DNA from: Somniosus microcephalus
Taxonomy: Eukaryota
Length of the DNA: 64,000 nt
Direction of reading: 5' to 3'
NCBI GenBank assembly: GCA_052327205.1
Contig: CM126202.1
Location: 385,640,001-385,704,000, forward strand
In this document: positions 2,278 to 63,400 of the stretch, piece after piece
Layout: every line of letters starts with the position of its first letter
Position numbering within the stretch: position 1 is the first letter of the stretch
The notes under the pieces: model-generated
Databases searched by the model: none
What the model was told of the DNA's origin: nothing
The model's input: only the letters and a program-made list of their open reading frames with translations
Made by a program: the position numbers and the translations under genes

Positions 2278-5275
2278 TTCATAGAGTCACAGAGTTTTAC
2301 AGCACAGAAAGAGGCCCTTCGGCCCATCGTGTCTGCGCCGCCCATCCATCCCTGTCCAGTCTAATCCCATTTTCCAGCATTTGGTCCATAGCCTTGTATG
2401 CAATGACATTTCAAGTGCTCATCCAAATGCTTCTTGAATGTTGTGAGGGTTCCTGCCTCTACCACCCTTTTAGGCATTGAGTTCCACATTCCAACCACCC
2501 TCTGGGTGAAAAAGTTCCTCCTCAAATCCCCTCTAAATCTCCTGCCCCTTACCCTGAATCTATGCCCCCTTGTTATTGACCCCCCTAAGGGGAAAAGTTC
2601 CTCTTTGTCTACCCTGTCTATGCCCCTCATCATTTTGTACACCTCAATCAGGTCCCCCCTCAGCCTTCTTTGCTCCAAGGAAAACAATCCCAGCCTGTTT
2701 AGTCTTTCTTCATAGCTGAGGCGCTCCATCCCAGGTAACATCCTGGTGAATCTTCTCTGCACCCTCTCCAAAGCAATCACATCCTTCCTATAGTGAGGTG
2801 ACCAGAACTGCACACAGTACTCCAGCTGTGGCCTCACCAGCGTTTTGTACAGCTCCATCATAACCTCCCTGCTCTTATATTCTATGCCTCGGCTAATGAA
2901 GGCAAGTATCCCATATGCCTTTTTAACCACCTTATCTACCTGTTCCGCTGCCTTCAGGGATCTATGTACATGTACACCAAGGTCCCTCTGACCCCCTGTG
3001 CTTCCTAGGGTCCTACCACTCATTGTGTATTCCCTTGCCTTATTTGTCCGTCCAAAATGCATCACCTCGCACTTTTCAGGGTTAAATTCCATTTGCCACT
3101 TTTCCGCCCATCTGACCAACCCGTTTAGATCGTCCTGTAGCCTGAGGCTTTCCTCCTCACAATTTACCACCCCACCAATTTTCGTGTCATCTGCGAACTT
3201 ACTGATCATACCTTTCACATTCTCATCCAAATCATTTATGTAGATCACAAACAACAAGGGACCCAGTACCGATCCCGGAGGTACCCCACTGGACACAGGC
3301 TTCCAGTCACAAAAGCAACCTTCGACCATCACCCTCTGCCTCCTGCCACTCAGCCAGTTTAGGATCCAACGCGCCAAGGCACCCTGGATCCCATGGGCTC
3401 TTACCTTCTTGACCAGTCTCCTATGCGGGACTTTGTCAAAAGCTTTACTGAAGTCCATGTAAACCACATCCACAGCATTTCCCTCATCCACCCCCCTAGT
3501 CACCCCCTCGAAAAATTCAATCAGATTTGTCAGACATGATTTACCCTTGACAAAGCCATGCTGACTATCCCTGATTAATCCTTGCCTCTCCAAGTGGAGA
3601 CTAATTTTGTCCCTCAGAATTTTTTCCAATAATTTCCCTACCACAGATGTTAGGCTCACTGGCCTGTAATTCCCTGGTTTATCCCTGCTACCCTTCTTGT
3701 ATAATGGTACTACATTAGCTGTTCTCCAGTCCTCTGGTACATCCCCTGTGGCCAGAGAGGTTCTGAAAATTTGTGTCAGAGCCCCTGCAATCTCCTCCTT
3801 TGCCTCCCACAGCAGCCTGGGATACATCTCGTCCGGGCCTGGGAATTTATCCACTTTTTGGCCTGCTAAAACCGCTAGCACCTCCTCCCTCTCGATGCTA
3901 ATATGTTCAAGTATGTCACAGTCCCCTTGCCCGATTTCTATGTCTGCATCGTCTCTCTCCATAGTGAACACAGATGCAAAAAATTCATTTAAAACCCCGC
4001 CTACATCATCTGGCTCTACACACAGATTGCCACTTTGGTCCCTAATGGGCCCTACCCTTTCCCTGGTTATCCTCTTGCCCTTAATATACTTATAAAACAT
4101 CTTAGGATTTTCCTTTATTTTGCTCGCCAGTGTTATTTCATGGCCCCTCCTCGCCCTCCTAATTTCTTTTTTAAGTATGCCCCTGCACTTTTTATACACC
4201 TCTAGGGCTTCTTCCGTCTTTAGTCTTTCGTAACTGCCAAAAGCCCCCCTTTTATTTCTAATGCATTTTTGTATATCCCTTGTCATCCAAGGTTCCCTTT
4301 GCTTGTTGGTCCCAGCCTTGACCTTTACAGGAACATGTTGGCGTTGTACTCTCTCTATTTCCCTTCTGAAAGTCTCCCACTGTTTTGATGTGGATTTTCC
4401 TATAAGTAGCTGCTCCCAGTCCACTTTGGCCAGATCCTGCCTTCTCATATTAAAATCGGCCTTCCCCCAATTTAGAACCCTTATTTCCGGGCCGTCTTTG
4501 TCTTTTTCCATGACCACCTTAAATCTCACCGAATTATGGTCACTGTCGCCAAAATGCTCTCCTACTGATACTTCCACCACTTGCCCGGCTACATTCCCCA
4601 GAATTAGGTCCAGTACCGCCCCCTCTCTTGTAGGACTTTCTACATGTTGGCTCAAAAAGCTCTCCTGGATGCACTTTAAGAATTCTGCACCCTCTAAGCC
4701 TTTCACACTCTGACTATCCCAATTTATATTGGGGAAGTTGAAATCCCCCACTATTACCCTCCTATTATTTTCACTTCTCTGAGATTTGCCTACATATCTG
4801 TTCCTCTATCTCCCCCTGACTGTTTGGGGGCCTATAGTACACTCCCAGCAAAGTGCTTGCCCCCTTTTTGTTTTTAAGTTCTACCCATAAGGCCTCATTA
4901 GAGGAACCCGCTAATATATCATCCCTCCTTACAGCAGTAATTGACTCCTTAATTAATATTGCAACACCCCCTCCCCCGAAGATTCTATACCCCGGAATAT
5001 TGAGCTGCCAGTCCTGACCCTCCCTCAACCATGTCTCCGTGATAGCAACAATATCGTACTCCCATGTGTTCAACAACAACTTCAGTTCAACCACCTTATT
5101 TGCAAGACTCCTTGCATTAAAATAAATGCCTTCCAGCCCTGCCATATTCCCTTTTGCCTTCACATATTTGCTCTGCCTTCCCAGCTGACTTGTTTTTTCC
5201 TCTGTATTTGGCTGTAAATCACCCCCTACTATAGCTCCACTCTGTACCCCATCCCCCTGCCAAGTTAGTTTAAAG
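2278..5275 (-). mobile_element. CR1 LINE, 5'-truncated, with near-complete ORF2 (APE endonuclease + RT) and 3' UTR
   Basis: Endonuclease motifs YFNARS, ITETWL, GVYYRPP (4771-5145) and the long RT ORF. Short-repeat 3' tail near 2280. Confidence 0.95.
2361..4751 (-). CDS. CR1 ORF2, uninterrupted 796-aa segment (endonuclease C-terminus + reverse transcriptase); frameshifted from its N-terminus near 4770
   Basis: MGDFN, SDHN, YRPVSLTS, DFSKAFD, GSVLGP, KFADD, C-terminal GYGPNAGKWD. Confidence 0.9.
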   Translation of the reverse strand: MGDFNFPNINWDSQSVKGLEGAEFLKCIQESFLSQHVESPTREGAVLDLILGNVAGQVVEVSVGEHFGDSDHNSVRFKVVMEKDKDGPEIRVLNWGKADFNMRRQDLAKVDWEQLLIGKSTSKQWETFRREIERVQRQHVPVKVKAGTNKQREPWMTRDIQKCIRNKRGAFGSYERLKTEEALEVYKKCRGILKKEIRRARRGHEITLASKIKENPKMFYKYIKGKRITRERVGPIRDQSGNLCVEPDDVGGVLNEFFASVFTMERDDADIEIGQGDCDILEHISIEREEVLAVLAGQKVDKFPGPDEMYPRLLWEAKEEIAGALTQIFRTSLATGDVPEDWRTANVVPLYKKGSRDKPGNYRPVSLTSVVGKLLEKILRDKISLHLERQGLIRDSQHGFVKGKSCLTNLIEFFEGVTRGVDEGNAVDVVYMDFSKAFDKVPHRRLVKKVRAHGIQGALARWILNWLSGRRQRVMVEGCFCDWKPVSSGVPPGSVLGPLLFVIYINDLDENVKGMISKFADDTKIGGVVNCEEESLRLQDDLNGLVRWAEKWQMEFNPEKCEVMHFGRTNKAREYTMSGRTLGSTGGQRDLGVHVHRSLKAAEQVDKVVKKAYGILAFISRGIEYKSREVMMELYKTLVRPQLEYCVQFWSPHYRKDVIALERVQRRFTRMLPGMERLSYEERLNRLGLFSLEQRRLRGDLIEVYKMMRGIDRVDKEELFPLGGSITRGHRFRVRGRRFRGDLRRNFFTQRVVGMWNSMPKRVVEAGTLTTFKKHLDEHLKCHCIQGYGPNAGKWD

Positions 5276-5356
5276 TTTGTGCTAGGTATGACTCCAGGAG
5301 AGTTTTCCCCTTGATTCCCATTGACTTCAATTTTCTTAGGGCTCCTTGATGCCACA

Positions 5357-5660
5357 AGGGACATTATGCAGATAAGGAAATGGAGAAGCCCACCATCATT
5401 TTTGGACTCCAGAATGACAATGCGTGGGTGGGCAAAGAAGTCATTGCTGGAGATGCATTGGTAGGTAAAAATGGAACCATGCAAGAGCAGTCCCATAAAA
5501 CTGAATGATGGAGGATGATCTGGACAACTGTATCGAAAGCTATGGAGAGGCAGAGGAGGAAAAGGTGAGATAACATACCACAGCCAAAGTCATAAAGTAG
5601 TGGTTTTCATCCAGGGGTCCATGAGAAGGTTTTAAGAGGTGTGACAAAAATGACCAGATT
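5357..5660 (-). mobile_element. Old L2-like LINE fragment
   Basis: LLCLSIAFDTV resembles the L2 RT motif LLDLSAAFDTV. Confidence 0.5.
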
Positions 5661-13097: not shown

Positions 13098-14633
13098 TCT
13101 ACAAAAAGTTTCAAACAACCAATAAAACTACTGCCTGCTGCCACATCTGCTCCTGTGCACAGCCCTGGTGGTGTGGTTAAGATGAGAGATGTGCACTGTG
13201 AGGAACTAAAGCTGTAAATGCAAGTTCTACACCTTCCATGGGATACTATGTTGGAATATCAACAGTCCTTGTGGTCTCATTTTATTTCTCTCTTTCCCTT
13301 GTTTGTACCTACAATACTCCAGATGTTATTTTGTTCCTTTTTGTATTCAACTTCCTTTTCATTATTTCTCCAAATCAATTTGCACTTCTTTTTCCCCCCT
13401 CTCATTTTAATTTAAATGTAATCATTTTCTTGCTCAATGTATTTTTTAAAAACAGAACACTAACTCACTTCTTTGATGAATGTTAATAAATTGTAAGCCA
13501 TGGTTCAACAAAGTTCTTTTAATAAAAGAGTTAGCAAATACATCAGTTTACTAATGACAACCAAGCACTAAAAAGCAATAAAAATTTAAATGAGAAACAA
13601 GATTTACTAAGAAAATGAATCTGCTCATTTAGTTAATATATTTACAGTGCAAAGAGTGAAAACTAAAGAGCTAGGTTCTATTTAACTTAAAATAGATCAA
13701 CTGTGCAAATGCAATCAGCAATTAATCTTTTTTCACTTTTATAATTGGATTAGGTTCAGACATAGCATATTCTTTGTATTATGCAGTTAGATGAAAGGTG
13801 TTGCAATTCACTGCAAATACTGTACTATCGTAAAATTCAGTCAAATAACCAGCTGAGAGAACGTCTACAATCTTAAATTGTTTTTCTATTATACCTGTAT
13901 TAATTGAGGTCTTGAGTGTAGCTGTGTTCCTGCAATATTTTAAATTAAATGCATTCTCTTTACAGAGGGAATTAGCATTGAAGCACAAAGAGTCTCAAAT
14001 AGCTGGGATACAGAGTGACACTCAAACCAAAACCAATTATATAGGATTGCTTTTTGAGAAAAAAAGGCAAGGGAACAAAAAGCCGAGTCGATGCAGAGAT
14101 GACCACACAAGACTGACAAGGGTATGTTTTAAGAACCGCAGGGCACATTTCTGACAATACTAGATTTCAAGGATCTTAGTGCACTTAAAATGTGACCTTT
14201 GTAAGATTTAACTGAGGTGAAGGAGAGGCCATTATATCTCTCCCAACATCTACTCTAGCATTCTAGGCAAGTGACATTGGGTTACAGCACGGACGTATAG
14301 AACAGGTTTTGAAAGCAAGATTTAAAAAAAAGAGACTCAGGAACTCCCAAACCCCGCTGCATTTGATCTTTTTTATTTTGATTTCAACTTTTCCCTTTGG
14401 CAAAAATAATTATAAAATAATCTTAAAGCATACATAAATTCAGGAACACCAGTTGTAACTTGTTCTTAAATTTTGACTTTGCATCTATCGTTACTCACAA
14501 CATTCAACAGATTCTCTCTCTGCAAGAGGGGATGGGAAGCATTATTAATTCGTGTCTGTAATTCAGATTTAATAGTTCATACAATGCCCCAACAAGTTAC
14601 ACAATTAACCCAAGAGATAGGCTATATATGGAA

Positions 14634-15829
14634 CTAGCTGAAGTGCCCGGCGGTGCCGAGGCTTTTTCGAGGGCATGTTGTTGTTGGAAGAGAGAGCGAT
14701 CGACTGGGGGGGGGGGGGGGGGGGGGGGGGGGAAGAGAGAAAGAGAGAGCGCGACTGGGGGGGGGGGGGGGGGGAAAGAGAGAGAGGGGAGGGCGGGGGG
14801 GGGGGAAAAGGGAGGGCAGGGGGGGGGAAGGGAGGGCGGGGAGAAGGGCGGGGAAGGGAGGGAGGGGGCCCCCCCCCCAGGGTCGCGCGCCCCCTCCCCC
14901 CAAGGTGAAGACCGCCGATTGCGCGCGCAGCAGGAGCTGAGACGCGGCGTCTCTCTCTGGCTCGGCCGGCGGGCCCGGTTGCCAGGGTAACCGTGACGCT
15001 GACCAAGCCCCGCCCCCCGGCCGAGCCAGAGAGAGAGACGCCGCGTCTCAGCTGCTCCTGCTGCGCGCGCCCCCCCCCCCCCCCGGAGGTGAAGACCGCC
15101 GATTGCAGCTGTGCGAGACGTCCGGCGGGCCCGGTTGCCAGGGTAACACTGGACGCTCAGCAAGCCCCGCCCCCCGGCCGAGCCAGAGAGAGACGCCGCG
15201 TCTCAGCTCCTGCTGCGCGCGCACCCTAGCGGCGCTGGGCTGAGGCTCGGCCCTCCAGCCTTCGAGTGGGGCCGGGAGGTGCCTAGCTCGGGCGTGGGTG
15301 CAGAGGAGACGCCGAGGCTTCTAGGCCTACCTGGAAAAACGGGGAATGGTAGGAAAATTAATGAGATTAGATAAGTTAATTACTTTCTAAATCATTTTTT
15401 TTTTTTTTTAAAAACAATGTCTTTTAAAAGCAACGTTTTTTTTTAAGACGCAGAAAGCGGGAAAAAGGAAAAGTTTGGAATCAAGATGGCGGCGACTCAC
15501 CTCGGTTCACAAGGATAAGGCCCGGCCACACACGCACCGATTGGCCCGGCGGCACACGCCAGCAACCCGGTGTACGATTGGTCGAGCTCGAGGTCACTCT
15601 GTCGCTAATGAGCGGATAATGAGATGCTAATGAGCGGAATGTTAAGGTTTTTGGGATACCGCGGGCGCGATTTTAGCCCGGCCGAAACGTAAATACGCTT
15701 AAAACCATCTCGGAAGCGTAAGCTTTCTTTGGAGGTAACGCGCGCGTAGGTACGCCCTGTAACTTTCGAGCGCATACCCGACAGACGCACACGCGATGAC
15801 AGACAGAAGTACCGATTTATATATATAGA
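14634..15829 (-). mobile_element. Non-autonomous Helitron (1196 bp) with GC-rich cargo
   Basis: On the minus strand it starts A|TCTATATATATAAA..CTGTCTGTC and ends CCTCGGCACCGCCGGGCACTTCAGCTAG|T (GC hairpin + CTAG). It sits between A and T with no TSD, and the flanks rejoin to ATGGAA|TACC of the local minisatellite. Confidence 0.85.
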
Positions 15830-15997
15830 TACCAAACAGGAGGAGGGAAATCAAAAACAACCCCCAACAGGAGGAGAGAATCAACAACCCCAACAGAGAT
15901 ATAGATCCAGATGGAATACCCAACAGGAGGAGGAAATTAACAACCACCACCACCCCCAAACAGAGATATAGAGCTACATGGAATACCCAATAGAAGG
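15830..15997 (+). repeat. Degenerate minisatellite (AGAGATATAGA..ATGGAATACCCAACAGGAGGAGG..) split by the Helitron
   Basis: Unit recurs at about 15895 and 15962. A partial unit lies left of the Helitron (14614-14633). Confidence 0.7.
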
Positions 15998-16261
15998 CAG
16001 CAAATAACAATTTGCACTAATAATGCACTTTAATGTAAAGAAATATCTACAGAAAGATGGAAGTTGCTAGGGTGCAAAGGAGATTGGAAAGGAGGGAAAT
16101 GCAAAGTAGAGGCAGCTGCATAGGTGGTTTTGATCCTGCAGACAAAGAACTCCATGAGCTTGTTTCATTTGGTGTTTGCAGCATGGGTGGAGAGTTAATA
16201 TTATATTAAAAACATTGCGTGGTCTCAGAATTCCAGCAGTGAGTGACACTTTAAATAGAAT

Positions 16262-18270: not shown

Positions 18271-18772
18271 TATTCCTACCAAAGTTATTGCTGTGGAAAT
18301 TTCAATTATCCACTTATCGATTGTGACAGAAAAGGAGTAAATGGAATTCCCAAATGCGTAGAGGACTCCTTCCTCAAACAATAAGTTACTATGTGCAGAC
18401 TTCATTACAGCCTTGGCCCAAACATGGACACAAAAGCTGAATTCCAGAGGCAAGGTGAGAGTGACTACCCTCGACATCAAGGCATCATCCACATTCTCTG
18501 AGGAAAACTGGATTCAGCATTATTTGTTAGCCTTTAAGTTTGTTCAAATATTCCAGAGAGACATTAAAGAATTAATATCAACATCTTAAATAGAAAAAAA
18601 ATGTTGCCACCCTTCTGCAACTATTGTTGTGCAATTTATAATGAGGAGGAGTCAGGTTTTTTTAAATACTAGATCAAGCTCTTATATTTCGTACACAAGG
18701 AGTGGGAACATCATGTTCCCAAAGAACATGATAACAGAACACCCTAAATAGGCAAAAACTGCTAATACCATG

Positions 18773-19063
18773 TGATGTGCCTCAATGAATCCGAGACTCA
18801 ACGTTAATGGAGCAAAGCAAGGCTTTTATTAACTCAGAAAGTAATACACAGTGGAGAAGTGTCTCTCATCCAGAGATCTGCTGTACTGCCTGTGAGACAC
18901 GCTGGGGCCTGCTTAAGTAGGGGCCAGGTATGGGCGGAGCCCTACATACAATACAATACAAGTAAGGAAATGAAACTGAAACTAAACTCCCCTGCTTGTC
19001 AGTCACAGGCACAATCAAACACAGAGAATACAGAGTGCCTGATGAATGGCATATTTCATCACA
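18773..19063 (-). repeat. 3' LTR (291 bp)
   Basis: Direct repeat of 22804-23083; adjacent to the PPT. Confidence 0.95.
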
Positions 19064-19073
19064 TTCACCCCTT

Positions 19074-21891
19074 CTACAGATTTAGTCTGTTCGGGGGTTT
19101 GATAGTCCTCTGTGACCGACGTAGCTGTTGTGGTGCCGCGGGTGTCGGCTGGGTGTCCCCGGTGGCCTCCTGGGTCTCTGCCGGGGGCGCCGCCAGGGTT
19201 GTTGAAGGGGTAGTTGGTGGGGGCACCGTTGGGCGATGTTCTTCCAGGGATGATGAAAGGATAGTGGGTGGGTAAGAGTTGCTGTGATCGTTGTTGCTGT
19301 CATGGTTGTCGTCGTTACCGGCTGGGGCGACGTCTTTTATGGACACGGTGTCCTCCCTTCCGTCGGCGTGCCGGACATACGCGTATTGGGGGTTGGCGTG
19401 GAGTAGGTGCACTGACTCCACGAGAGGGTCCGTCTTGTGGCCCCTCACATGCCTTCGTACAAATACCGGACCTGGGGCGGCATGGATACGCCCGAGGTGG
19501 ATTTCCGGGGAAAGACAAACATTCGTTCATGAGGCGTGGCATTAGTGGCAGTACACAATAGCGACCGTATCGAATGGAGCACATCTGGGAGGACTTCCTG
19601 CCAGCGGGAGATAGGGAGGCCCTTGGTCCTTAAAGCTAGAGTGACTGCTTTCCATACTGTCCCGTTCTCTCGCTCCACCTGGCCGTTACCCTGGGGGTTG
19701 TAGCTGGTGGTACGGCTCGTGGCGATCCCCCTGGACAGCATGTACTGGCGTAGCTCTTCACTCATGAAGGACGCCCCCCTATCCGTATGGATGTAGCTCG
19801 GCATACCGAACAGGCTGTTGAGGCATTTAATGACCGTGGCACTGGTCATGTCTGGGCAGGGGAAGGCGAATGGGAAACGGGAGTATTCGTCCACAATGTT
19901 CAGGAAGTAAACATTGCGGTCGACTGACGGGAGGGGGCCCTTGAAATCTAAGCTGAGCCGCTCAAAGGGCCGTGTAGCTTTAAGTGGGCTCTATCTGGGC
20001 GGTAGAACCGAGGCTTGCACTCGGCGCAAGTGCGGCAGTTCCTGGTCAGAGACCGAACTTCCTCAATCGAGTAGGGTAAGTTGCGGGACTTTATGAAGTG
20101 GAACAGCCGTGTGACCCCTGGGTGGCAGAGGTCATTGTGGAGGGTCTGTAGCCGATCCCCGGTGGCGCTGGCACACATCCCTTGAGAGAGAGCGTCGGGG
20201 GATTCGTTAAGGGCCCCTGGCCGGTAAATGATGTCATACTCGAAGGTGGAGAGCTCGATCCGCCACCTGAGAATCTTATTTTTAATCTTCCCCTTCTGTT
20301 TATTATTAAACATAAACGCTACCGACCGCTGGTCGGTAAGTAGGGTGAAGCGTTTGCCGGCTAGGTAGTGGCGCCAGTGGCGCACTGCCTCCACGATGGC
20401 TTGGGCCTCCTTTTCCACGGAGGAGTGTCTGATCTCGGGCCCTTGGAGGGTCCTCGAGAAGAAAGCTACGGGCCGCCCCGCCTGGTTGAGGGTGGCCGCC
20501 AAGGCAAAGTCAGACGCATCACTTTCCACTTGAAAGGGAGTGTTCTCGTCCACTGCCTGTAGCGTGGCCCGTTCAATATCCCGCTTAATGCTTTTGAAGG
20601 CGGCGTGGGCCTCAGCAGAGAGCGGAAAGGAGGATGCTTTCAAGAGGGGGCGGGCTTTGTCGGAGTAGTTGGGGACCCATTGGGCATAAGAAAATAACCC
20701 CAGGCACCTTTTCAGGGCTTTGGGAGTGTTGGGCAGGGGCAGCTCCCGTAGGGGGCGCAATCGGTCGGGGTCTGGTCCGATTTCCCCATTCTCCACCACG
20801 CTGCCTAGTATGCAGAGGCGCGTGGTGTTGAAAACGCACTTGTCCTCGTTGTAAGTGAGGTTGAGTTTTTGTGCGGTTTTCAGGAACCTCTCGAGGTTCG
20901 AGTCGTGATCCTGCTGGTTGTGACCGCAGATGGTGACGTTGTCGAGGTAGGGGAAGGTTGCCTGCAAGTGGTGGTCATCAACCATGCAGTCCATCTCCCT
21001 CTGGAAGACCGAGACCCCATTGGTCACCCCAAAGGGGACTCTGAGGAATTGGTAGAGGCGTCCGTTTGCCTCGAAGGCGGTGTACGGGCGGTCCTCTGGT
21101 CTGATAGGGAGCTGGTGGTACGCTGACTTGAGGTCGATGGTGGAGAACACCCGGTATTGGGCAATTTGGTTCATCATTTCTGATATGCGGGGTAGCGGGT
21201 AGGCGTCTAGTTGGGTGTACATGTTGATCGTTTGGCTATAGTCGATCACCATCCGTTTCTTCTCGCTACCCCTCACCACCACCACTTGGGCGCGCCACGG
21301 GCTGTTGCTGCGTTCAATAACGCGCTCCCTCAGCAGCCTGTCCACCTCGGTCGCGATAAACCGCCTGTCCTCCCAGCTGTACCTCCTGCTTTTGGTCGCT
21401 ATTGGCCGGCAGTTGGGAGTAAGGTTCGCGAATAGCGAAGGCGGCTTTACCTTCAGGGTAGCCAGACCGCACACTGTGAGGGGCGGCTGGGACCCACCGT
21501 AATTGAGCGTGATGCTTTGGTGGTGGCACTGGAAATCCAGGCCCAAGATCACGCTCGCACATAGACTCTTCAGGATTAGTAATTTAAAATTATCGTATAC
21601 AGTTCCGTTAACGGACAATTGTACCGCGCAGTAACCCATAATGGTCGATGTCTGGGTTTTATCAGCCATAGAGATGGTGCCCCGAGCAGGGACCACCGTT
21701 AGAGAGAGTTGTTGTGCTAGTTCAGGGTGGATAAAACTCTCCGTGCTTCCACTGTCAATTAAACATTTAACCCCGCACCCATTTACCTTGATGTCCACCA
21801 TGGATTTGGATAGCGGGTGCGGTCTGGTCTGGTCTGGTCCACTGTGACCGATGCCACTGTAGGGCCCTGATCGAGACAAGATGGCGTCCAC
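19074..21891 (-). pseudogene. pol: Gypsy pol (protease, RT, RNase H, integrase), split into ORFs 19948-21891, 19445-19894 and 19074-19448
   Basis: LIDSGS, DLKSAYHQ, YLDN, ESDASD, H..H..CRTC zinc finger, DEYSRF..HTDRG..GQVER integrase core. Confidence 0.95.
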
Positions 21892-22777
21892 GCTGTCTGC
21901 TCACAAGATGGCGGACCCCACGAGGTCAGGCAAGATGGCGTCCAAGATGGCCGCTCCCACGGCGCACACGCGGCGGTGGCTGGTTTTCCAGCGGGGTTCC
22001 CTCTGCAAACCTTCCCGAAGTGCCCCTTCTTACCGCACTTAAAGCAGGTGGTGCCTTTCGCCGGGCACAGGTTTCTGGTGTGCTTCGGCTGCCCGCAGAA
22101 GTAGCAGTTGGGGCCCCGACGCGTCACGGCTGTCGTAGGGCTTCTGGGGGGAGGAGAGCGGGGCCCCGACGGTGTCGGGCTGGGAAGATGCCTTCCAAGA
22201 TGGCAGCGCCCTTGGTGCACACGTGGCGGCGTGGGCTGAAGAGTAGGCGTCCGAGTTTCTCTGGGCCACATCCAGGGATCGCGCTGTGTCCGCAGCCTGT
22301 TTGAGGTCCAATCCCGTTTTTTCCAGTAGTCTCTGCCGGATGTAAGTGGAGCTGAGGCCTGTGATAAAGGCATCACGAACAAGCTCGTCAGTGTACACTG
22401 CGGCTTTTACATCTTGGCACTTGCAGTCTTTGCCAAGCGTTTTCAGGGTGACTAGGAACTCATCCAGCAGGTCGCTGTGTGCGAGTAGCGAGCAGATGCC
22501 TAGCGTACACCTCGTTCGTAGGCTGCTGGTAATGCGCCTTTAGGATGTCGCAGGCGGCCGGGTACGTGTCGGCGTCTTGGATGAGGGGGTAAACCCGGTG
22601 GCTTACCCAATTCCGCAGGATTCCGAGTTTCATACTTTCAGCGTCCGTAGCGTCTGTGATGGCTGCGGAATTGTCCAGGAAGAATTCCATACACTTAAAC
22701 CAGTGTCCAAATCGTGCCGATGCGTCCGAAGCATGCGGGTCCAAATCCAAACGTTCGGGTTTCAAGAGTTGATCCAT
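21783..22777 (-). pseudogene. gag: Gypsy gag (frameshifted) with zinc knuckles
   Basis: MDQLLKPERLDLDP..., LVRDAFITGL..IRQRLLE, CYFCGQPKHTRNLC and CFKCGKKGHFGKVC, spread over three frames. Confidence 0.9.
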
Positions 22778-22803
22778 TGCGTTGAAAGTTGAGTTAATAA
22801 AAT

Positions 22804-23083
22804 TGATGTGCCTCAATGAATCCGAGACTCAACGTTAACGGAGCAAAGCAAGGCTTTTATTAACTCAGAAAGTAATACACAGTGGAGAAGTGTCTCTCAT
22901 CCAGAGATCTGCTGTACTGCCTGTGAGACACGCTGGGGCCTGCTTAAGTAGGGGCCAGGTATGGGCGGAGCCCTACACACAATACAGGTAAGGAAATGAA
23001 ACTGAAACTAAACTCCCCTGCTTGTCACAGGCACAATCAAACACAGAATACAGAGTGCCTGATGAATGGCATATTTCATCACA
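22804..23083 (-). repeat. 5' LTR (280 bp)
   Basis: Differs from the 3' LTR by 3 substitutions and 3 short slippage indels (5, 4 and 2 bp) on manual alignment. Confidence 0.95.
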
Positions 23084-23339
23084 CCATGGAGATTAAAAAT
23101 TAAAATAAAGTGGAGAACTTAAGTTGCAGCAAAATGTGTTGCAGCTTTTCTTGACACTATACAATTGCAAAAAGAAAAACTCAATCCACAGAAACCATTT
23201 TCTGAACTGTTATTTTGTGCTTTTAATATCTTCACTGAAGTCTTTACACAAAGGCCTCAGCCTCTCCATAAATCCTATACTCAAAAAGCAAGCCAATCTA
23301 ACCTGGCCAATTACCACCAATCATCTTCCTCAAAGTGAT

Positions 23340-39280: not shown

Positions 39281-40715
39281 GTAAGCCACGTTTCTGACAC
39301 TATGAAGCTAAAACTCCAGGCTCGTGCTAGTTGGCGAACTGAAGCGATTGTTTTAAAACCAACAATAACAAGCAGCAGGAACCTTGAAATTGGTTTTGTT
39401 CTTGTATCTGTGTAGTAGGAAGCTTAGACTCACGACGAGTTGTAAGGAAAAATAAGTCAGCTTTTTCGTAAAAGAGGCGGGTAAGGTCGAGTAGACTCCA
39501 ATAGCCATAAGTTTTTCACATGAATGTATCTAGAGCTATTCTGGTAACATACTCAAGTGTTATTTCGAAGTAGGAGCACATTGGCCCCAGATTTTCCTGT
39601 AACGGTGAGATCACCAACATACACTGCAAATTACGCCGTCAACACGCCAATCTCCCTGTTGATAACTTACTTCATATTTTCCCGCATTTCTAATTGGAAT
39701 AGGCCGCAGCGGACATAGCGAATCAGAAGTGGCATAGCCAATGTACTGATAGAGCCACTAACTGCGAGTTCTTTGTACGGTGGTAATTGACGTGCTGAAC
39801 TCAACAACCATGCTACATTACTACCGCCTGGTTCTAACTTAGATTCTGATGTAAACTACATTTCTGCACGTGAAATTTTATGTTGGAGCGGGGCGTGCCC
39901 CGTGAGTTGGATTTTTTCCTCATCCTTAAATTCGAAAAAAATTTGCGTCGCAAACTGCTGAAAGTGTGAGCTGATAACGGGGAATCTGGGACCTTAGTGA
40001 ACGACGGGGCCAACAGTCTAGCTCCTTAACCAATTACATTTAAGGATTAAACATGGCATGCAATAGACAAAATTCTGTTTTAAAATCAAAATAAGTAAAC
40101 CAAAGAAGCTACACATCCAAATCAACATGTAAGTTTTGCTGTCCAGAACAACCTTCTCATTATTAGCATTTCAAAGTCTTGATTTATTAAAGGTTCGGGC
40201 TTCATGGGGTTGTAAATACCATGGGGGGGAAATTCAGTTGGTAGTGCCACCCGTTAGCACCTTAAGAGGGCGCTAAGTGGGGCGCAAACCAACTAGCGCC
40301 CGGGCGCGGCGATATCTACGCCTCTCGCGAAATTGGACATTTTGCGGCGGCGCTAAACAATACCGCCCAATCTCCTGCGCACGCAGATTTTGACGTCATT
40401 TGAGAGTGCAATGCCCTTGGGGCGCCCCGGACTGGAAATTCAGTGGTGCCCCCCCTCCTTTCCGCCTGGCGCGACCAACGACAGGTTGACTGGAACGCTT
40501 CCCAGTCGCTGTGGGGCTGGGGGGGGTGCTATTTAAAGGGGGCCTCTTCCTGGCTTTTGTGTGGTAGCCATTTTTGCACCACTCGTTCTGAGAGAGAGAG
40601 AGATTTGGAGAGAGACAAAGAGAGACTTCTGCATTGAGTCAACGCTGTCTGAGGTAGTTTTGGCTTCTGACCAGAACTTTGCAGGTACTTTGCTTTTTGA
40701 CTGTCATAGCTTTGA

Positions 40716-41867
40716 TTGCCCAGATACTATGGGGCTGCAATGGATGGGAACGTCGTACTTCTCCATCACATTCAGAGGGCACAGAGACGCAGAGAGAGAG
40801 TGGCAATCATGGCCAGACAGGGCAGGGCCAACAGACGTCGGTACAGGAGACCTTACCCTTCCAGGGTTTTTTGTCAACAGTTCTCGTACATTAACATGTC
40901 TGAGGAGCAGTGTTTGCGAAGGCTGCGATTCATCAAGGAGGTGGTCACTGAGCTCTGCCACCTGCTTCAGCCAGATCTGCAGCCTCAACTGAGGAGCAGG
41001 ACGTCTCTGTCGGTGGCAGTGAAGATAACAGTAGCTCTCAACTTTTATGCCACCGGCTCCTTTCAATCCGCTACTGGGGACATCGCCAATATCTCCCAGT
41101 TCGCGGTGCATTGCTGCATCCATCAGGTCACAAATGCCCTCTTTAAAAGGAGATGAGAGTACATCTCTTTCCCCATGACCCCGGACAAGCAGCAAGAATG
41201 CGCAACGGGCTTTGCGATGATAGCGGGCTTCCCCATGGTGCAGGGCGCCATTGACTGCACGCATGTGGCTTTGCGGGCACCACAAGAGAATGCCGAGGAT
41301 TTCCGCAACCGAAAGGGCTTCCATTCCTTAAACGTCCAGTTGGTCTGTGACCACAGACTGCTGATACTCGCTGTCAATGCCCACTTTCCAGGCAGCAGCC
41401 ACGATGCCTTCATCCTACGCCAGACTTCTGTGGCAGACCTTTTCGAGGCACCGCTTCACCCAGGAGGTTGGCTTCTCAGGGACAAGGGATGTCCTGTGTG
41501 CACCTGGCTGATGACCCCGCTCCGTTCGCCCAGCACCCCTGCTGAGCTACGCTACAACGAGAGCCATCAAGCTACCAGGAACATCATTGAGCACACAATC
41601 GGCATGCTCAAGCAATGGTTCCACTGTCTGGACCATTCTGGAGGAGCCCTGCAGTACTCGCCTGAGCGAGTCTCCCACTTCGTTGTTGTGTGCTGCATGC
41701 TGCATAACCTAGCAATCCTCAGGACCCAGCCAATGCCACCAGACATTGGAGCACCAACAGAGGAGGAGGAGGAGGATGAGGAGGATGGTCATCAGCAGCA
41801 CCAAGGCGGGAGGGAGGCACAAAGTGCAAGGGCCATCTGTCAAAGGCTCATAGCAAGTCGGTTCTAG
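40716..41867 (+). pseudogene. Harbinger DDE transposase (HARBI1-like family) with one in-frame stop at 41154-41156
   Basis: ALNFYATGSFQ, GAIDCTHV, NRKGFHSLNVQLVCD, PGSSHDAFIL, RNIIEHTIGMLK, CCMLHN. Confidence 0.92.
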
Positions 41868-42174
41868 GCCCCCTCTGAGGGAATGGCTTCTGCCATTCAA
41901 ACAACCTGAATGAAACCATCCCGCAACCCCTAAGCCGGTCAAGGCAACAATGAGTGCAAAGACCAAACATGCACATTTTGAATACTGACACTTCTTTATT
42001 TCCCAAAAACTGTGTCTCATTTCCGCATGACAAAGTAATAGAAAGAAACACCAAAAAAAAGTCATTCACATAACTGGCTCTCACAACCTGGAGACAATGT
42101 CCAAAACAGTAACAAAAATTTCACCACGACCCTCGGCCTTCAACAAAACAATGAAATACATTTTGCGACACCTC

Positions 42175-43957
42175 CTACTTTTTGCCCTTCGAGGGTGATC
42201 TGCCTCCCTTGCGAAATTGCCCCCTTCCTACCCTGCAGCTCCTCAGTAATGGGACCCCAGTGGCTGCAGCAAGGCTGGGGGAAGGCTGCTGAGTGTCAGA
42301 AACTGAGACTGCAGATGCCCTTGAGGGACGGCCTGGACCAGCTCTGGGCCTGGAGGGCCCGGCTGCTGACTGCTCCAACTCTGCATAGGCGGCAGCAGTC
42401 TGTCCTACAGGTGGTGGCAGCTGCAGTGGAGAAGTGACAGTGTTGGCAGCAGGAATGCTGTCATCTTGAGCGAGGACAGCAACTCCCTGCTCGACCGACA
42501 CACTGGCACTCCGACGGGGCAGCACCTCAGCATGCGGAGCAATCTGCTGGAGCACAGATTGTTGGCCTGCTGTGGCGCGGTGAGAGCCCCAAGGAAATCT
42601 GCCCGATCCAGTGAGGGTGGCAGCAGTCAGTGCTCGCATGACCTCAATCTGTGTCTGCATGAGACCAGTCACTGACTGCATTGCAGCACTTAGCATTTGT
42701 GTGGCAGCCGCCTGTGCTCCAGCGAAGTGCTCCACACTCCTTGCCAGTGATTCAATGGATTCGGGCATCCTTGCCACTGCAGCCATGAGCTCAGTGTGCC
42801 TTTGCTCCGCCTGGGCGCTCATTTCAGCAAGGACCTGCTCCTCATCTGCATTCAGTGCAGCAGGACTCGAGGCCACACTTGCCGTCCGGGGAGAAGGCCC
42901 CCGAGCTTCCCTAACCCCCTCGCGTTGCTGCAGCCCGCTGGGTCCTGGAGCTTCACCCTCATCAGACCATTCCCCCCCACTCCCCTCCAGGGAAGTCGTG
43001 TCCCCAGTATGGGCATGGGCTGCCTCGGCAGAGGGTTGCGCTGATGGTCCGGCTTCCTCTTCCTCCTCGCCTTCACCTTCACTCCCAATGGCAGCATGAG
43101 GGCCCATCTCCTCACCTGGTGAATCACCATCTGAAAGCAGGGAGGTACAAGAGTGGCTTTAGCGTGAGGACAGGGCGGCAGCAAGGGAGACATGAGTGCA
43201 GCGATGTACTGATTTGGATTGAAAGTGTCAAAGGCTGCTGTTGTGAGGAACAAGTGGAAGGAGAGAGGACAAAAAGGTGCTGGCCAGAACGGGGTCGGCG
43301 ACTCCAGTGGCAACGGGACCAAGCATCCGGCTTGCCACAATCCTGTGGATGCGCTGCTCAAGATCGCTGAGGGCTTGAAGGTGAGGCCGCCCTCCACCGG
43401 TCCGTTGCTGCTGTCTCCTATTATGAGCCAGCTTGACTGCAAGAAAAAGGACAGCGTCTGAGCAAATATGCAGCCATGATCTTGCCTGAAATGCCTCCCA
43501 TGGTTGAATAGCCCTTACTCTATGCAGCCATGATCTTGCCTGAAATGCCTCCCATGGTTGAATAGCCCTTACTGTATGCAAAGAGTGGAATGTGCATGTG
43601 TGTTTCATGAAAGGGCCATAGGTGTTGGATGAGTGCTGGGCATTGGGGCTTTCAAGACCCCCTGGCCATAAAGTGAGGTGGAGATGGAGGGATGAGGAGG
43701 TTTTGAAAAAAGACACTCACCCTGACGACCCGAGTGAAGTCGCTGAACTTTTTCCTGCATTGCACAGGGGTCCTAGGCACCATGCTGCTTGAGGTCACTC
43801 TGTGAGCCACCTCCCTCCACGCTTTTCTGTATTCACTTGGCAAAGGCCTCCTGCCACTCTCTGGGTACAGTAGAGATCTTCTGCGCTCCACCGCACCAAC
43901 CAAAGCCTCCAAGGCACGCTCGCTGAAGCGCTGTGCTCGCTCCCTGGCCCTCTCCAT
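42175..43957 (-). pseudogene. Harbinger Myb/SANT-like DNA-binding protein; 3 exons (about 43957-43721, 43436-43281, 43130-42175)
   Basis: RFSERALEALV..KAWREVA..RTPVQCRKKFSD trihelix, AGG|GTGAGT donor, two CAG acceptors and RTGGG motif. The exon 1/2 phase mismatch suggests a 1-bp loss. Confidence 0.8.
43467..43574. repeat. 54-bp tandem duplication in the Myb gene intron
   Basis: TATGCAGCCATGATCTTGCCTGAAATGCCTCCCATGGTTGAATAGCCCTTACT x2. Confidence 0.9.
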
Positions 43958-44424
43958 AGCCCCTGGCTGGAAGATTTCGCCACAGGTCTGTCCAGGCCGA
44001 GATTCAAGGCTCCAGTGAGCAGGGCATAGCTGAAGAGCAAGATCGACCCTCCCCTTTAAGAACTGACTGGCGCCAGTGTGTCTGTGTTCAGTCGCTAACT
44101 GACAGCACCTCCGCTGCACCCGCCCTCTGAGGTAGCACCTCGCTCCTTGGGCTTAGCGCCTTAAGAGAGTTGTGTAGCGCCTGATTTAGCGTTCCGATCA
44201 CCTCCAGGGGCGAGAAAGGCGAATTTTGCAGCCGGCGGCGATAATTTGTGCCGGGCGCTAAACTTTGCGCCCAGCCGATATTCGCGCCTCAAAATGGGCG
44301 ATACCAAATTTCACCCCCCATGTCCTGATTAACAAACACATTAAATACATGATTTAAATCCGAAATAACAACAGAAAACGCTGGAAAAACTCAGCAGGTC
44401 AGGCAGCATCCGTGGAGAGAAAAT

Positions 44425-54434: not shown

Positions 54435-57400
54435 TAAACATAGAAAACATAGAAGATAGGAGCAGGAGTAGGCCATTCGGCCCCTTGAGGCTGCTCCGCC
54501 ATTCAATGAGATCATGGCGGATCATCCAAACTCAGTACCCTGTCCCTGCCTTCTCCCCATATCCCTTGATCCCTTTAGCCTTAAGAAATATATCTAACTC
54601 CTTCTTGAATATATTTAATGAATTGGCCTCAACTGTCTTCTGTGGTAGAGAATTCCACAGGTTCACCACTCTCTGGGTGAAGAAATTCCTCCTCATCTCT
54701 GTCCGAAATGGCTTACCCCTTATCCTTAGACTGTGACCCCTGGTTCTGGACTCCCCCGCTATCAGGAACATCCTTCCTGCATCTAGTCTGTCTAGTCCTG
54801 TTAGAATTTTATAAGTTTCAGTGAGATCCCCTCTCATTCTTCTAAACTCCAGCGAGTATAAGCCCAATCAACCCAATCTCTACTTATACGTCATTACTGC
54901 CATCCCAGGTATCTGTCTGGTGAATCTTCGCTGCACTCCCTCGATGGCAAGAACATCCTTCCTCAGATAAGGCGACCAAAACTGCACACAATACTCAAGG
55001 TGTGGTCTCACCAAGGCCCTGTACAACTGCAGCAAGACATCCTTGTTGCTGTATTCGAACCCTCTCGCTACGAAGGCCAACATACCATTTGCCTTCTCAA
55101 CCGCCTGCTGCACCTGCATGCTAACCTTTAGTGACTGGACACCCAGGTCTCTTTGCACTTCCCCTTCTCCCAATCTATTGCCGTTCAGGTAATAATCTGC
55201 CTTCCTGTTTTTGCCACCAAAGTGGATAACCTCGCAATTATCCACATTATACTGCATCTGCCATGCATCTGCCCAATACACCACATCCACTGGTTCTCCC
55301 TTATCTATTCTACCAGTTACATCCTCAAAAAATTCCAGTAGATTAGTCAAGCATGATTTACCTTTTGTAAATCCATGTTGACTTTGTCCAATCCTGTCAC
55401 TGTTTTCCAAGTGCTCTGCTATTACATCTTTTATAATGGACTCTAGCATTTTCCCCACTACCGATGTCATGCTTACTGGTCTGTAATTCCCCATTTTCTC
55501 TCTACCACCTTTTTTGAACAGTGGGGTAACATTAGCTACCCTCCAATCCATGGGAACTGTTCCAGAGTCTATCGAATTTTGGAAGATGACCAGCAATGCA
55601 TCTACTATTTCTAGGGCCACTTCCTTAAGTACCCTAGGATGTAGATTATCAGGCCCTGGGGATTTATCGGCCTTCAATTGCCTAACACCATTTCCCTACA
55701 AATACTGATTTCTTTCAGTTCCTCCCTCTCATTAGACCCTATGTTCCCCGACATCTCTGGGAGGTTATTTGTGTCCTCCTTTGTGAAGACAGAACCAAAG
55801 TATGTATTTAATTGGTCTGCCATTCCTTTGTTCCCCATTATAAATTCCCCTGATTCTGACTGCAAGGGACCTATGCTTGACTTCACCAATCTTTTTCTCT
55901 TCACATATCTATAGAAGCTTTTACAGTCAGTTTTTATGTTCCCTGCAAGCTTACTCTCATACTCTATTTTCCCCCTCTTAATTAATCCCTTTGTCCTCCT
56001 TTACTGAATCCTAAACTGCTCCCAATCCTCAGGCTTACTGCTTTTTCTGGCCAATTTATATGTCCTCTCCTTGGATCTTATGCTATCGCTAATTTCCCTT
56101 GTTAGCTACGGTTGAGTCACCTTTTTTGTTTTATTTTTATGCCAAACTGGGATGAACAAATTCTGTAGTTCATCCATGCGATCTTTAAATGTTTGCCATT
56201 GCCTATCCACCGTCAACCCTTTGAGTAACATTCCCCAATCAATCCTACCCAACTCGCGCCTCATACCATCGTAGCTTCCTTTATTTAAATTGAAGACCCT
56301 AATCTCTGAGTCAACTACTTCACTCTCCATCTTAATGAAGAGTTCTATCATATTGTGATCGCTCCGCCCCAAGGGGCCTCGCACCACAAGATTGCTAATT
56401 ATTCCTTTCTCATTACATAATACCCAGTCTAAGATGGCCTGATCTCTAGTTGGTTCCTCGACATGTTGATCCAGGAAACCATCCCATATACACGCCAGAA
56501 ATTCCTCCTCCACAGTATTGTTACCAATTTGGTTAGCCCAATCTATATGTAGATTAAAGTCACCCATGATAACTGCTGTGCCCTTATTGCACGGGTCTCT
56601 AATTTCCCATTTAATGCCATCCCCAACCTCCGCATTGCTGTTTCGGAGTCTGTATACAACTCCCACTAACGTTTTCTGCCCCTTGGTATTTCTCAGCTCT
56701 ACCCATACAGAATCCACATCAGAGCTAATATCCTTCCTTACAATTCTGTTAATCTCCTCTTTAACCAGCAATGCTACCCCACGTCCTTTTCGCCTGTCTT
56801 TCCTGAATATTGAATACCTTTGGATGTTGAGTTCCCAGCTTTGGTCACCCTGGAGCCATGTTTCCGTAATCCCAATCATATTATATACGTTTACATCTAT
56901 TTGCGCAGCTAATTCATCCACCTTATTATGAATGCTCCTCGCAATAAGACGCAAAGCCTTCAGGCTTGTTTTTTTTTTTTAACACTCTTAGACCTTTTAG
57001 AATTATTATTTACTGTGGCCATGTTTGATTTAAACCCTTGATTTCTCTGACGGCCACTTTTGCTTTTCTCCTTCCTGTCTTTTGCTTCTATCCTTGTTTC
57101 CCTTTCCTCTGTCTCCCTGCACAGGTTCCCAACCCCCTGCCATTTTAGATTAAACCCTCCCCCACAGCACTAGCAAACACTCCCCCTAGGACATCAGTCC
57201 CAGTCCTGCCCAGGTGCAAACCGTTCAGTTTGTACTGGTCCCACCTCCCCCAGAACCGGTTCCAATGTCCCAGGAATTTGAATCCCTCCCCCTTGCACCA
57301 TTCCTCTAGCCACGTATTCATCTGAAATATCCTTCTATTTCTACGCTGACTAGCACGTGGCACTGGTAGCAATCCTGAGATTACTACCTATTGAGGTCCT

Positions 57401-60497: not shown

Positions 60498-63400
60498 ACC
60501 AATCTCCAATCTCAGCTCCGAGAGCGGGAGAGGGAAGTAAAAAGTAATCGAACTGTGACGTCACCAGAAAGCAGGTAAGTGATTGGTTGGTGAGTATTTC
60601 TCTCTCTCTCCTTTTTTACAAGCTTAAATTTTGTGTTTTATAGTTTCTAGGGTCTATGTGGTGTAGCGGGGACAGTTGTTAAACAAGGGCCATTGAGTAT
60701 ATAATTTAATTGGTGGTATTGATTTGATTTAATTTGAATTAATTAAAGGGTAAGTCATGTCAGGACAGCCCGGCCCTGTGGTATGCTCCTCCTGCGCTAT
60801 GTGGAAATTCAGGGATACAGATATACCGTATTGGATACCGTGTTGGATACTGTTGGGGGGGATGGCTTATCAGAGGAAGGCAGCAGCAGCCAACTTCCTG
60901 CCACCAGGGGTGGTTCTGCTGCACAGGACGGGAGGAAAAAGAGGGGTAGAGTTACAGTAATAGGGGATTCTATTGTAAGGGGAATAGATAGGTGTTTCTG
61001 CGGCCGCAAACGAGACTCCAGGATGGTGTGTTGCCTCTCTGGTGCAAGGGTCAAGGATGTCTCAGAGCAGCTGCAGAAGATTTTGGAAGGGGAGGGTGAA
61101 CAGCCAGTTGTTGTGGTGCATATAGGTACCAACGATATAGGTAAAAAAAAATGGGATGAGGTCCTAAAAGCTGAATATAGGGAGTTAGGAGGTAAATAAA
61201 TAAAATAGGACCTCAAAGGTAGTAATCTCAGGATTGCTACCAGTGCCACGTGCTAGTCAGAGTAGAAATAGAAGGATATTTCAGATGAATACGTGGCTAG
61301 AGGAATGGTGCGAGGGGGAGGGATTCAAATTCCTAGGACATTGGAACCGGTTCTGGGGAAGGTGGGACCAGTTCAAACCGGACGGTTTGCACCTGGGCAG
61401 GGCCGGGACCAATGTCCTAGGGGGAGTGTTTGCTAGTGCACTGGGGGACAGTTTAAACTAAAATGGCAGGGGGTTGGGAACCTGAGCAGAGAGACAGAGG
61501 AAAGGGAAACGAGGATAAAAGCAAAAGATAGGAAGGAGAAAAACAAAAGTGGCAGTCAGAGAAATCAACTGTTTAAATCAAACATGGCCACAGTAAATAA
61601 TAATTCTAATAGGTCGAAGAGCATTAAAAAAACAAGCCTGAAGGCCTTGTGTCTTAATGCGAGGAGCATTTGTAATAAGGTGGATGAATTAGCTGCGCAA
61701 ATAGAGGTAAACGAAAAGGATTTGATTGGGATTACGGAAACATGGCTCCAGGGTGGCCAAGGCTGGGAACTCAACATCCAGGGATATTCAATATTCAGGA
61801 AAGATAGGCAAAAAGGAAAGGGAGGTGGGGTAGCATTGCTGGTTCAAGATGGGATTAACACAATTGTAAGGAAGGATATCAGCTCTGATGATGTGGAATC
61901 TGTATGGGTAGAACTGAGAAATACCAAGGGGCAGAAAACGTTAGTGGGAGTGGTATATAGACCAGACCTCCAAACAGTAATGCGGAGGTTGGGGATGGCA
62001 TTAAAAGGGAAATTAGAGATGCGTGCAATAAGGGCACAGCAGTCATCATGGGTGACTTTAATCTACATATAGATTGGGCTAACCAAATTAGTAACAATAT
62101 TGTGGAGGAGGAATTCCTGGAGTGTTTATGGGATGGTTTCCTGGACCAATATGTCGAGGAACCAACCAGAGATCAGGCCATCTTAGACTGGGTATTATGT
62201 AACGAGAGGATTAATTAGCAATCATGTTGTACGAGGCCCCTTGGGTCGGAGCGATCATAATATGATCGAATTCTTCATTAAGATGGAGAATGAAGTAGTT
62301 GACTCAGAGACTAGGGTCCTGAATTTAAATAAAGGAAACTACGATGGTCTGAGGCACGAGTTTGGTAGGATTGATTGGGGAATGTCACTCAAAGGGTTGA
62401 CGGTGGATAGGCAATGGCAAACATTCAAAGACCGCATGGATGACCTACAGAATTTGTTCATCCCAGTTTGGCATAAAAATAAAACAAAAAAGGTGACTCA
62501 ACCATGGCTTACAAGGGAAATTAGGGATAGCATAAGATCCAAGGAGAGGACATATAAATTGGCCAGAAAAAGCAGTAAACCTGAGGATTGGGAGCAGTTT
62601 AGGATTCAACAAAGGAGGACAAAGGGATTACTTAAGAAGGGGAAAATTGAATATGAGAGTAAGCTTGCAGGGAACATAAAAACTGACTGTAAAAGGTTTT
62701 ATAGATATGTGAAGAGAAAAAGATTGGTGAAGTCAAGCATAGGTTCCTTGCCGTCAGACTCGGGGGAATTTATAATGGGGAACAAAGAAATGGCAGACCA
62801 ATTAAATACATATTTTGGTTCTGTCTTCACAAAGGAGGACACAAATAACCTCCCAGAGATGTCGGGGAACATAGGGTCTGATGAAAGGGAGGAACTGAAA
62901 GAAATCAGTATTTGTAGGGAAATGGTGTTAGGGAAATTGATGGGATTGAAGGCGGACAGATCCCCAGGGCCTGATAATCTACATCCTAGGGTACTTAAGG
63001 AAGTGGCCCTAGAAATAGTAGATGCATTGCTGATCATCTTCCAACATTCGATGGAATCTGGAACAGTACCCATGGATTGGAGGGTAGCTAATGTTACCCC
63101 ACTCGTCAAAAAAGGTGGTAGAGAGAAAACGGGGAATTACAGACCGGTAAGCCTGACATCAGTAGTGGGGAAAATGCGAGAGTCCATTATAAAAGATGTA
63201 ATAGCAGAGCACTTGGAAAACAGTGACAGGATCGGACAAAGTCAACATGGATTTACAAAAGGTAAATCGTGCTTGACTAATCTACTGGAATTGTTTGAGG
63301 ATGTAACTGGTAAAATAGATAAGGGAGAACCAGTGGATGTGGTGCATTTGGACTTTCAGAAGGCTTTTGATAAGGTCCCGCATAAGAGATTAGCGTGTTA

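Follow-up and report, generated by a model that had tools for sequence, protein, structure and literature searches.

A Ty3/Gypsy element with a primer binding site complementary to its own LTR, and the case for self-priming in a group without a chromodomain

The window, by which we mean the whole 64-kb stretch of DNA that was analysed, contains a Ty3/Gypsy element of 4.3 kb on the minus strand. Its parts, in the order in which the element is read, are as follows.

23084..23088, minus strand: left target-site duplication (TSD), CATGG, 5 bp
22804..23083, minus strand: 5′ LTR, 280 bp, reading TGTGATG...CACATCA
22963..22970, minus strand: GC box, CTCCGCCC, common to the four neighbouring families of the run-on test described below
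22943..22950, minus strand: TATA-like box, TACTTAAG, with TATAAA at the same place in relatives; a putative promoter element
22918..22919, minus strand: putative transcription start, an initiator-like CAGT, placed by the pile-up of run-on ends
22855..22867, minus strand: LTR pairing segment, TGAGTTAATAAAA, the putative 3′ end of the self-primer
22856..22861, minus strand: AATAAA poly(A) hexamer within the helix, predicted to be paired in the 5′ context
between 22855 and 22854, minus strand: putative cut between A and GCC, at the 3′ edge of the pairing segment
22803, minus strand: 1-nt spacer (A) separating the LTR-terminal CA from the primer binding site
22790..22802, minus strand: non-tRNA primer binding site (PBS), 13 nt, TTTTATTAACTCA, recognised by its sequence and by the complement test
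19074..22777, minus strand: gag-pol, with two CCHC knuckles, protease, reverse transcriptase (RT) with the motif YLDN, RNase H and integrase
19064..19075, minus strand: polypurine tract
18773..19063, minus strand: 3′ LTR, 291 bp
18768..18772, minus strand: right TSD, CATGG, 5 bp

The LTRs beginning with TG and ending with CA, the 5-bp TSD, the polypurine tract and the domain order protease, RT, RNase H, integrase place the element in Ty3/Gypsy, and the best PDB matches are the Ty3 Gag-Pol and the Ty3 RT. The two LTRs differ by three substitutions over 280 aligned bases, and this copy of gag-pol is broken, with frame changes near 22466, 19990 and 19480. There is no Rfam match anywhere in the window. 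Elsewhere the window contains a GC-rich remnant of a Harbinger-like DNA transposon (about 40500–44200, with DDE_Tnp_4 at 41157–41867 on the plus strand and Myb/SANT at 43652–44152 on the minus strand), LINE (non-LTR) copies that have both endonuclease and RT domains at 2361–5589, 54880–56978 and 61437–63401, many additional LINE fragments repeated across its length, and a GC-rich segment at 14000–16000 with open frames of 183–201 codons and no Pfam match.

Three features of the leader were noted in a preliminary description of this DNA and are confirmed. First, the 5′ LTR is followed not by TGG but by the A at 22803 and then TTTTATTAACTCA. Secondly, the 13 nt at 22802–22790 are an exact complement of the segment at 22867–22855 within the same LTR, with 52 nt lying between the two arms. 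Thirdly, the gag ATG at 22777 is only 26 nt beyond the LTR end. The 3′ LTR has its own copy of the pairing segment, at 18824–18836, with no PBS behind it. Chance can be rejected as the origin of the complement, as the best match in 5000 dinucleotide shuffles of the LTR was 11/13 (seen three times), and 12 or 13 matches never occurred. As a whole, the 171-nt region has an unremarkable folding energy (z = −1.59), and the signal is the position and co-variation of the complement. The PBS is identical in all 29 other fetched copies of the window family, and the LTR arm in 28 of them; this family is young and large, and a search of the 6.4-Gb genome with a gag-start pattern gave 12,699 matches.

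Relatives were gathered by gag, and the helix was not a criterion for their inclusion. We entered 132 loci, comprising the window element, L109, 47 of 60 pattern loci and 83 of 86 outside loci (three have no gag start); the pattern loci left out were mostly false matches outside gag, such matches occurring among L061–L090. At least 100 nt upstream was available for 125 of the 132, which fall into 44 families at 80% identity, and the removal of six without a PBS anchor (the anchor requires TTT or TCT) left 38 anchored families. Co-variation between PBS and LTR segments had been named in the preliminary description as a check on self-priming, and it is clearly present: the best member of 33 of the 38 families pairs at 12/12 positions, as against 8 of 1406 cross-family pairs. 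Taken locus by locus over the first 12 PBS bases, the match is 12/12 in 83 of 125 and 11/12 in a further 18. The 33 families with a perfect helix share kinship and do not represent 33 independent events; they have helices of 12–18 nt, loops of 24–72 nt and 31 distinct arm strings. The first pair is A-T in all 33, GCC or ACC follows the LTR arm in 30, and each of helix positions 4–12 is occupied by two to four pair types. The 1-nt spacer is likewise found in all 33, being part of the anchor definition and checked against the LTR ends. In most of the inspected loci that have no helix the leader is interrupted or one base is mismatched; TGG was not seen at a recognisable LTR end in any of them.

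Co-variation is also seen within families. Compared with 6204 normal junctions, rare PBS variants have a base changed at position 10 (55 copies) or position 9 (51 copies), and among the 30 copies fetched for each variant the LTR arm has the complementary change in 12 and 10 respectively, or 22 of 60 overall. These compensated copies form four separate groups of 11, 1, 7 and 3 members that are 36–64 substitutions apart per 1400 nt. The three groups with several copies are on supported branches, one of which includes an uncompensated copy, and in one group the pair change and a single other shared change are all that separates the copies from their three nearest relatives. In one lineage, of which 30 of 42 LTRs were fetched, the matching PBS lies behind all 13 fetched 5′ LTRs that carry the variant. 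The uncompensated PBS variants are spread over many backgrounds. If the PBS is re-copied from the primer, a single LTR mutation can reach the PBS in a later cycle, and the compensated variants fit such re-copying from an LTR-derived primer, with one mutation giving rise to both changes; two mutations together with selection may also have given the same pairs.

Other Gypsy families of the same genome provide useful controls. We reject priming by a tRNA 3′ end, as a PBS starting with TGG is found neither in the 38 anchored families (the anchor itself requires TTT or TCT) nor at the recognisable LTR ends inspected. In half-tRNA-primed elements the PBS matches an internal tRNA segment, and here the best match of the PBS is 7/13, among only 10 tRNA sequences of four isotypes; the tRNA search gave mostly one tandem tRNA-gene array with a period of about 1.6 kb (G000:C24:42.9–43.16 Mb). 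A control Gypsy family (L361–L363), with 26–28% RT identity to the window group, has LTRs of 211 bp, a canonical TGG PBS and a self-match of at most 8/11. A chromodomain family of the host (L378–L385) has a PBS with an 11/11 self-match about 30 nt after a TATA-like box, which is the geometry of Tf1; this match was found in four of eight fetched copies, the LTR end being misplaced in the other four. Some copies of this chromovirus have a frame of 1452 amino acids, and its LTR-PBS junction has 451 matches. Membership of the window element in this family was rejected; the element has no chromodomain. The RTs are about 30% identical (29–31% for the window group).

A primer longer than its pairing segment has a simple consequence: the plus strand would be expected now and then to extend beyond the PBS. 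Searching with the PBS plus three further complementary bases recovered 68 copies in the window's family group, all of which were fetched, and three further searches for other families gave 3, 31 and 51 matches. Sequences were fetched for all 3, for 30 of the 31 and for 30 of the 51. The removal of 10 duplicates left 121 run-on copies, in which the PBS continues into the inverted upstream LTR. In 59 of these the copied stretch exceeds 140 nt and almost always extends to the first base of the LTR; they look like the products of a plus strand folded back on LTR DNA, and a TSD flanks four of the five long run-ons that have a complete LTR, other than a 3′ LTR, upstream. The remaining 62 are partial and stop within 100 nt. 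Most of the partial run-ons rejoin the element interior, and among 30 examined, all six with both ends visible have a 5-bp TSD. Because they are flanked by 5-bp TSDs, the run-on copies are integrated products of reverse transcription. We note also four short palindromic inserts (L308, L311, L317 and L331) consisting of LTR, PBS and inverted U3-R between 5-bp TSDs; these are integrated fold-back products, and could yield double-stranded RNA.

The ends of the partial run-ons are not evenly distributed. Fifteen of the 62 are 29–33 nt after the TATA-like box, which corresponds to 48–52 nt after the GC box, with 12 upstream of this pile-up (past the putative start) and 35 downstream. A uniform distribution would place 4.6 ends in the 7-nt pile-up window (P = 4e-5), a value that is optimistic, as the window was fixed after the ends were known and two of the copies (L441 and L447) probably represent a single event. 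By search set the pile-up accounts for 5/30, 9/21, 1/10 (family C) and 0/1 of the partial ends. Run-ons of 51 and of 67 nt stop at an equal distance from the promoter, despite the differences in leader length between subfamilies. The simplest reading suggested by these ends is that the template was an RNA beginning at the transcription start, which would here be near 22918, some 64 nt before the primer 3′ end; the pairing segment is then likely to lie at about +52 to +64, within R. The template of the piled-up run-ons may be either the attached primer or a separate intact RNA in trans, and the PBS end of the plus strand can also anneal to LTR DNA or to another RNA, as in the long run-ons and the ends that pass the start. 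RNA reads from two raw runs, aligned on two leaders, cover gag and the LTR, the LTR depth coming mainly from mixed subfamilies and both strands; they resolved neither the start nor the poly(A) site. A search for LTR copies that end in a poly(A) tail gave a single match. Run-on copies offer a means of reading, from genomic sequence by itself, where transcription starts and how long the primer is.

Four things are established: PBS and LTR are complementary, their layout is fixed (LTR-terminal CA, spacer base, PBS, with an LTR arm that ends in A), the two co-vary, and run-on copies exist. Self-priming outside the chromodomain elements, as proposed in the preliminary description, is well supported at the level of sequence by the family co-variation, the compensated sub-lineages, the run-ons and the host controls, and we consider it likely for the window element and its relatives. 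That the primer is a long, internally paired one, made up of 50–65 nt of the transcript 5′ end, is somewhat less secure, but still probable on the positions of the run-on ends. We put at about three in four the likelihood of the explanation as a whole, namely that this is a widespread animal group of Ty3/Gypsy elements which self-primes with a cut-off 5′ fragment of the transcript. The proposed cycle would proceed in five steps. Transcription would begin near 22918, some 30 nt beyond the TATA-like box, and the segment at about +52 to +64 would fold onto the PBS. The RNA would then be cut at the 3′ end of the pairing segment, probably by the element's own RNase H as in Tf1, to give a primer of about 52–65 nt that is paired by its last 13 nt only. 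Plus-strand synthesis would copy the PBS back from the primer, normally having to halt at 13 nt of the approximately 60 nt available, and over-long copying would produce the run-on copies. In Tf1-type self-priming a stem, the R-U5 stem, adjoins the primer duplex. The first 3 nt after the primer are predicted to be paired in 22 of the 33 families, a count taken with no shuffle control and with pairing partners that vary.

An alternative is the classical geometry of Tf1, in which transcription would begin with the pairing segment itself, on its first base, the primer would be 12–13 nt long and the poly(A) overlap would be incidental. In its favour, most families of this genome have a helix with a sharp 5′ edge at 13 nt, and there is a precedent in Tf1 itself, which primes with its first 11 bases (PMC7175516); moreover, 22 of the 33 families have no TATA-like word in the 130 nt upstream. 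However, in seven of nine families of this genome a TATAAA or TATA-like box precedes the primer 3′ end by 86–103 nt, the run-on ends cluster about 30 nt beyond such a box, and the real Tf1 layout is displayed by the host chromovirus, unlike the window group. We therefore regard a Tf1-like start as improbable here.

The relationship of the helix to the poly(A) signal deserves closer attention. A canonical hexamer (AATAAA or ATTAAA) lies inside the helix in 26 of the 33 families, a variant in three, and it is absent from the helix in four; in three of the 33 the loop holds a canonical hexamer. For all 13 of the 5′ contexts the hexamer has a predicted unpaired probability of 0.00, compared with 0.41–0.92 for all 17 of the 3′ or solo contexts, and for the window copy it is 0.005 in the 5′ context as against 0.44–0.49. 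Because the putative start is about 57 nt upstream of AAUAAA, the hexamer would be within R at both ends of the transcript, and suppression at the 5′ end would therefore be needed. Masking is possible with this arrangement, given a start that apparently precedes the helix by about 50 nt and a hexamer predicted to pair in the 5′ context only. The preliminary description had proposed just such 5′-only masking; the helix is, however, kept without a hexamer-like word in four of 33 families and with only a variant in three. Pairing is more conserved than the hexamer. Whether the helix has a real effect on polyadenylation is, on these predicted structures, nearly an even question, leaning slightly towards no. 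Were it to do so, the overlap with AAUAAA would be a simple solution to the problem of polyadenylation in 5′ and 3′ LTRs.

A close parallel is the poly(A) hairpin of HIV-1, in which an RNA helix over AAUAAA within R represses polyadenylation at the 5′ end (PMC2645353). The HIV-1 hairpin occurs at both ends of the RNA, where 3′ enhancers overcome it, whereas one arm of the helix in the window element is outside the LTR; that helix can therefore form at the 5′ end alone, and it would also serve as the primer duplex. This parallel, the presence of the hexamer in most of the helices and its predicted pairing only in 5′ contexts could together be taken to mean that the helix serves to hide the 5′ poly(A) signal and that the primer is a tRNA fragment or some other small RNA. 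We consider this very unlikely: besides the helices that persist without a hexamer, the 3′ arm begins one base past the LTR end, where a primer must end, and the PBS is diverse among families yet follows the LTR of each, a match that no conserved host RNA could provide. Concealment of AAUAAA in the 5′ LTR would instead be a likely side benefit of self-priming in most families, and not the reason for the helix. Least credible of all is that the helix is a by-product, with no role in priming, of repeated fold-back or template switching at the LTR end; such products are common (59 long run-ons among 121), but fold-back presupposes a complement that is already present, and the complement keeps a fixed place in elements whose RTs are only 56–80% identical and which have no other primer site.

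With respect to classification, the earlier statement that no chromodomain follows the integrase holds for the window ORFs, an intact family member and six homologues: neither a chromodomain nor a Tf2-type SH3 was found at E 0.1 in the seven proteins of the intact member and the homologues, and the same search found the chromodomain in both host control proteins. A quick RT tree, built without named references and with long separate branches and an unsettled deep order, sets the 33 rows of the window group apart from the TGG and chromodomain families with a support of 85, below the 95 mark. The window group resembles Tf1 and Tf2 of Schizosaccharomyces pombe, Tj1 of S. japonicus and the vertebrate Tf1/sushi elements in having no tRNA PBS, in having a PBS complementary to its own 5′ LTR, and in a primer presumably made by cutting of the RNA (PMC7175516, PMC4600332, PMC6317226), and the copying of the PBS sequence into DNA at the plus-strand end is a further likeness (PMC11042837). 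There are several differences. The window element has two CCHC knuckles and neither a chromodomain nor a Tf2-type SH3; the helix of its group is 12–18 nt as opposed to 11 in Tf1, and usually overlaps the poly(A) hexamer, whereas the hexamer-like AGTAAA of the host chromovirus, read by eye, is far downstream of its primer. The pairing segment also appears to be inside R, whereas the Tf1 primer is described as the 5′ end of the RNA, its first 11 nt; with a start placed about 50 nt upstream of the segment, this feature of Tf1 would not be shared. The element appears to work like a self-priming Tf1 and yet is not a chromovirus by its domains, with a primer that is apparently long and paired inside R.

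Other known systems share some of these features. Self-priming has been put forward from LTR-PBS complementarity alone for the plant elements Tcn1 (Gypsy) and TAR (Ty1/copia), so that TAR already extends the proposal outside the chromoviruses (PMC6317226); these elements are of other lineages and hosts, and the parts of that source consulted report neither a poly(A) overlap nor an internal primer. Gypsy elements of the Mag lineage likewise have two CCHC arrays and no chromodomain (PMC2577118, PMC3601003, PMC6238403). The Troyka elements or Kuafuorterviruses are described as having an xADD RT motif, a 3-bp TSD and a length of 5–6 kb (PMC11673190), and membership in that group was rejected for an element with YLDN, a 5-bp TSD and 4.3 kb. 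Comparison with a protein atlas gave generic RT families only. Two families of the host, which we take to be of Mag type from their motifs, have 25–28% RT identity to the window group, and the one with LTRs recovered has a TGG PBS.

The RT motif is a further departure. The window copy reads YLDN (20949–20938, minus strand), and YxDN, with asparagine in place of the second catalytic aspartate, replaces YxDD in 88 of the 119 relatives in which the motif was found (121 proteins examined), as well as in most of the fetched elements; one family (L101) combines YLDD with the same helix. The same D-to-N change is reported to abolish transposition in Ty1 (PMC2148107). Our literature search found no mention of the YxDN substitution. 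An origin of self-priming in this group separate from that in Tf1/sushi is plausible. The stronger proposal, of a second form of self-priming that is independent of Tf1/sushi and is characterised by a capped primer of 50–65 nt, a helix over the poly(A) hexamer and mostly a YxDN RT, can be advanced only tentatively, and we think it rather doubtful; if it were true, one helix would shut off 5′ polyadenylation, define the cut and re-template the PBS in each cycle.

The group is widely distributed. The closest named proteins are from cartilaginous fish (75–80% identity in RT-RNase H), with further relatives in nematodes, a sea anemone, corals and insects; a search of viral contigs found no relatives, and the gag N-terminus had no match among longer proteins. 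To our knowledge self-priming is proven only for Tf1 of fission yeast, and among Gypsy elements it is treated as a chromovirus trait. Our search of the literature, with Repbase outside its scope, found no description of priming in this group. Some marine-invertebrate Gypsy entries in Repbase are presumably annotated as self-primed, and the group may be known there. A second successful animal lineage with another primer geometry would bear on both the frequency and the ancestry of tRNA-free priming, and the question of whether such priming is ancestral has been raised in PMC3601003. Self-priming elements would also be without the site targeted by 3′ tRNA fragments.

Finally, we note several features of individual copies. 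Relatives are present in contigs of bacterial metagenome-assembled genomes (L191–L196), where they most likely reflect host contamination. Copies of one family form a cluster in the same orientation at G000:C1:22.69–22.86 Mb, and two copies (L092 and L093) are inserted in a satellite with a repeat of about 42 bp.
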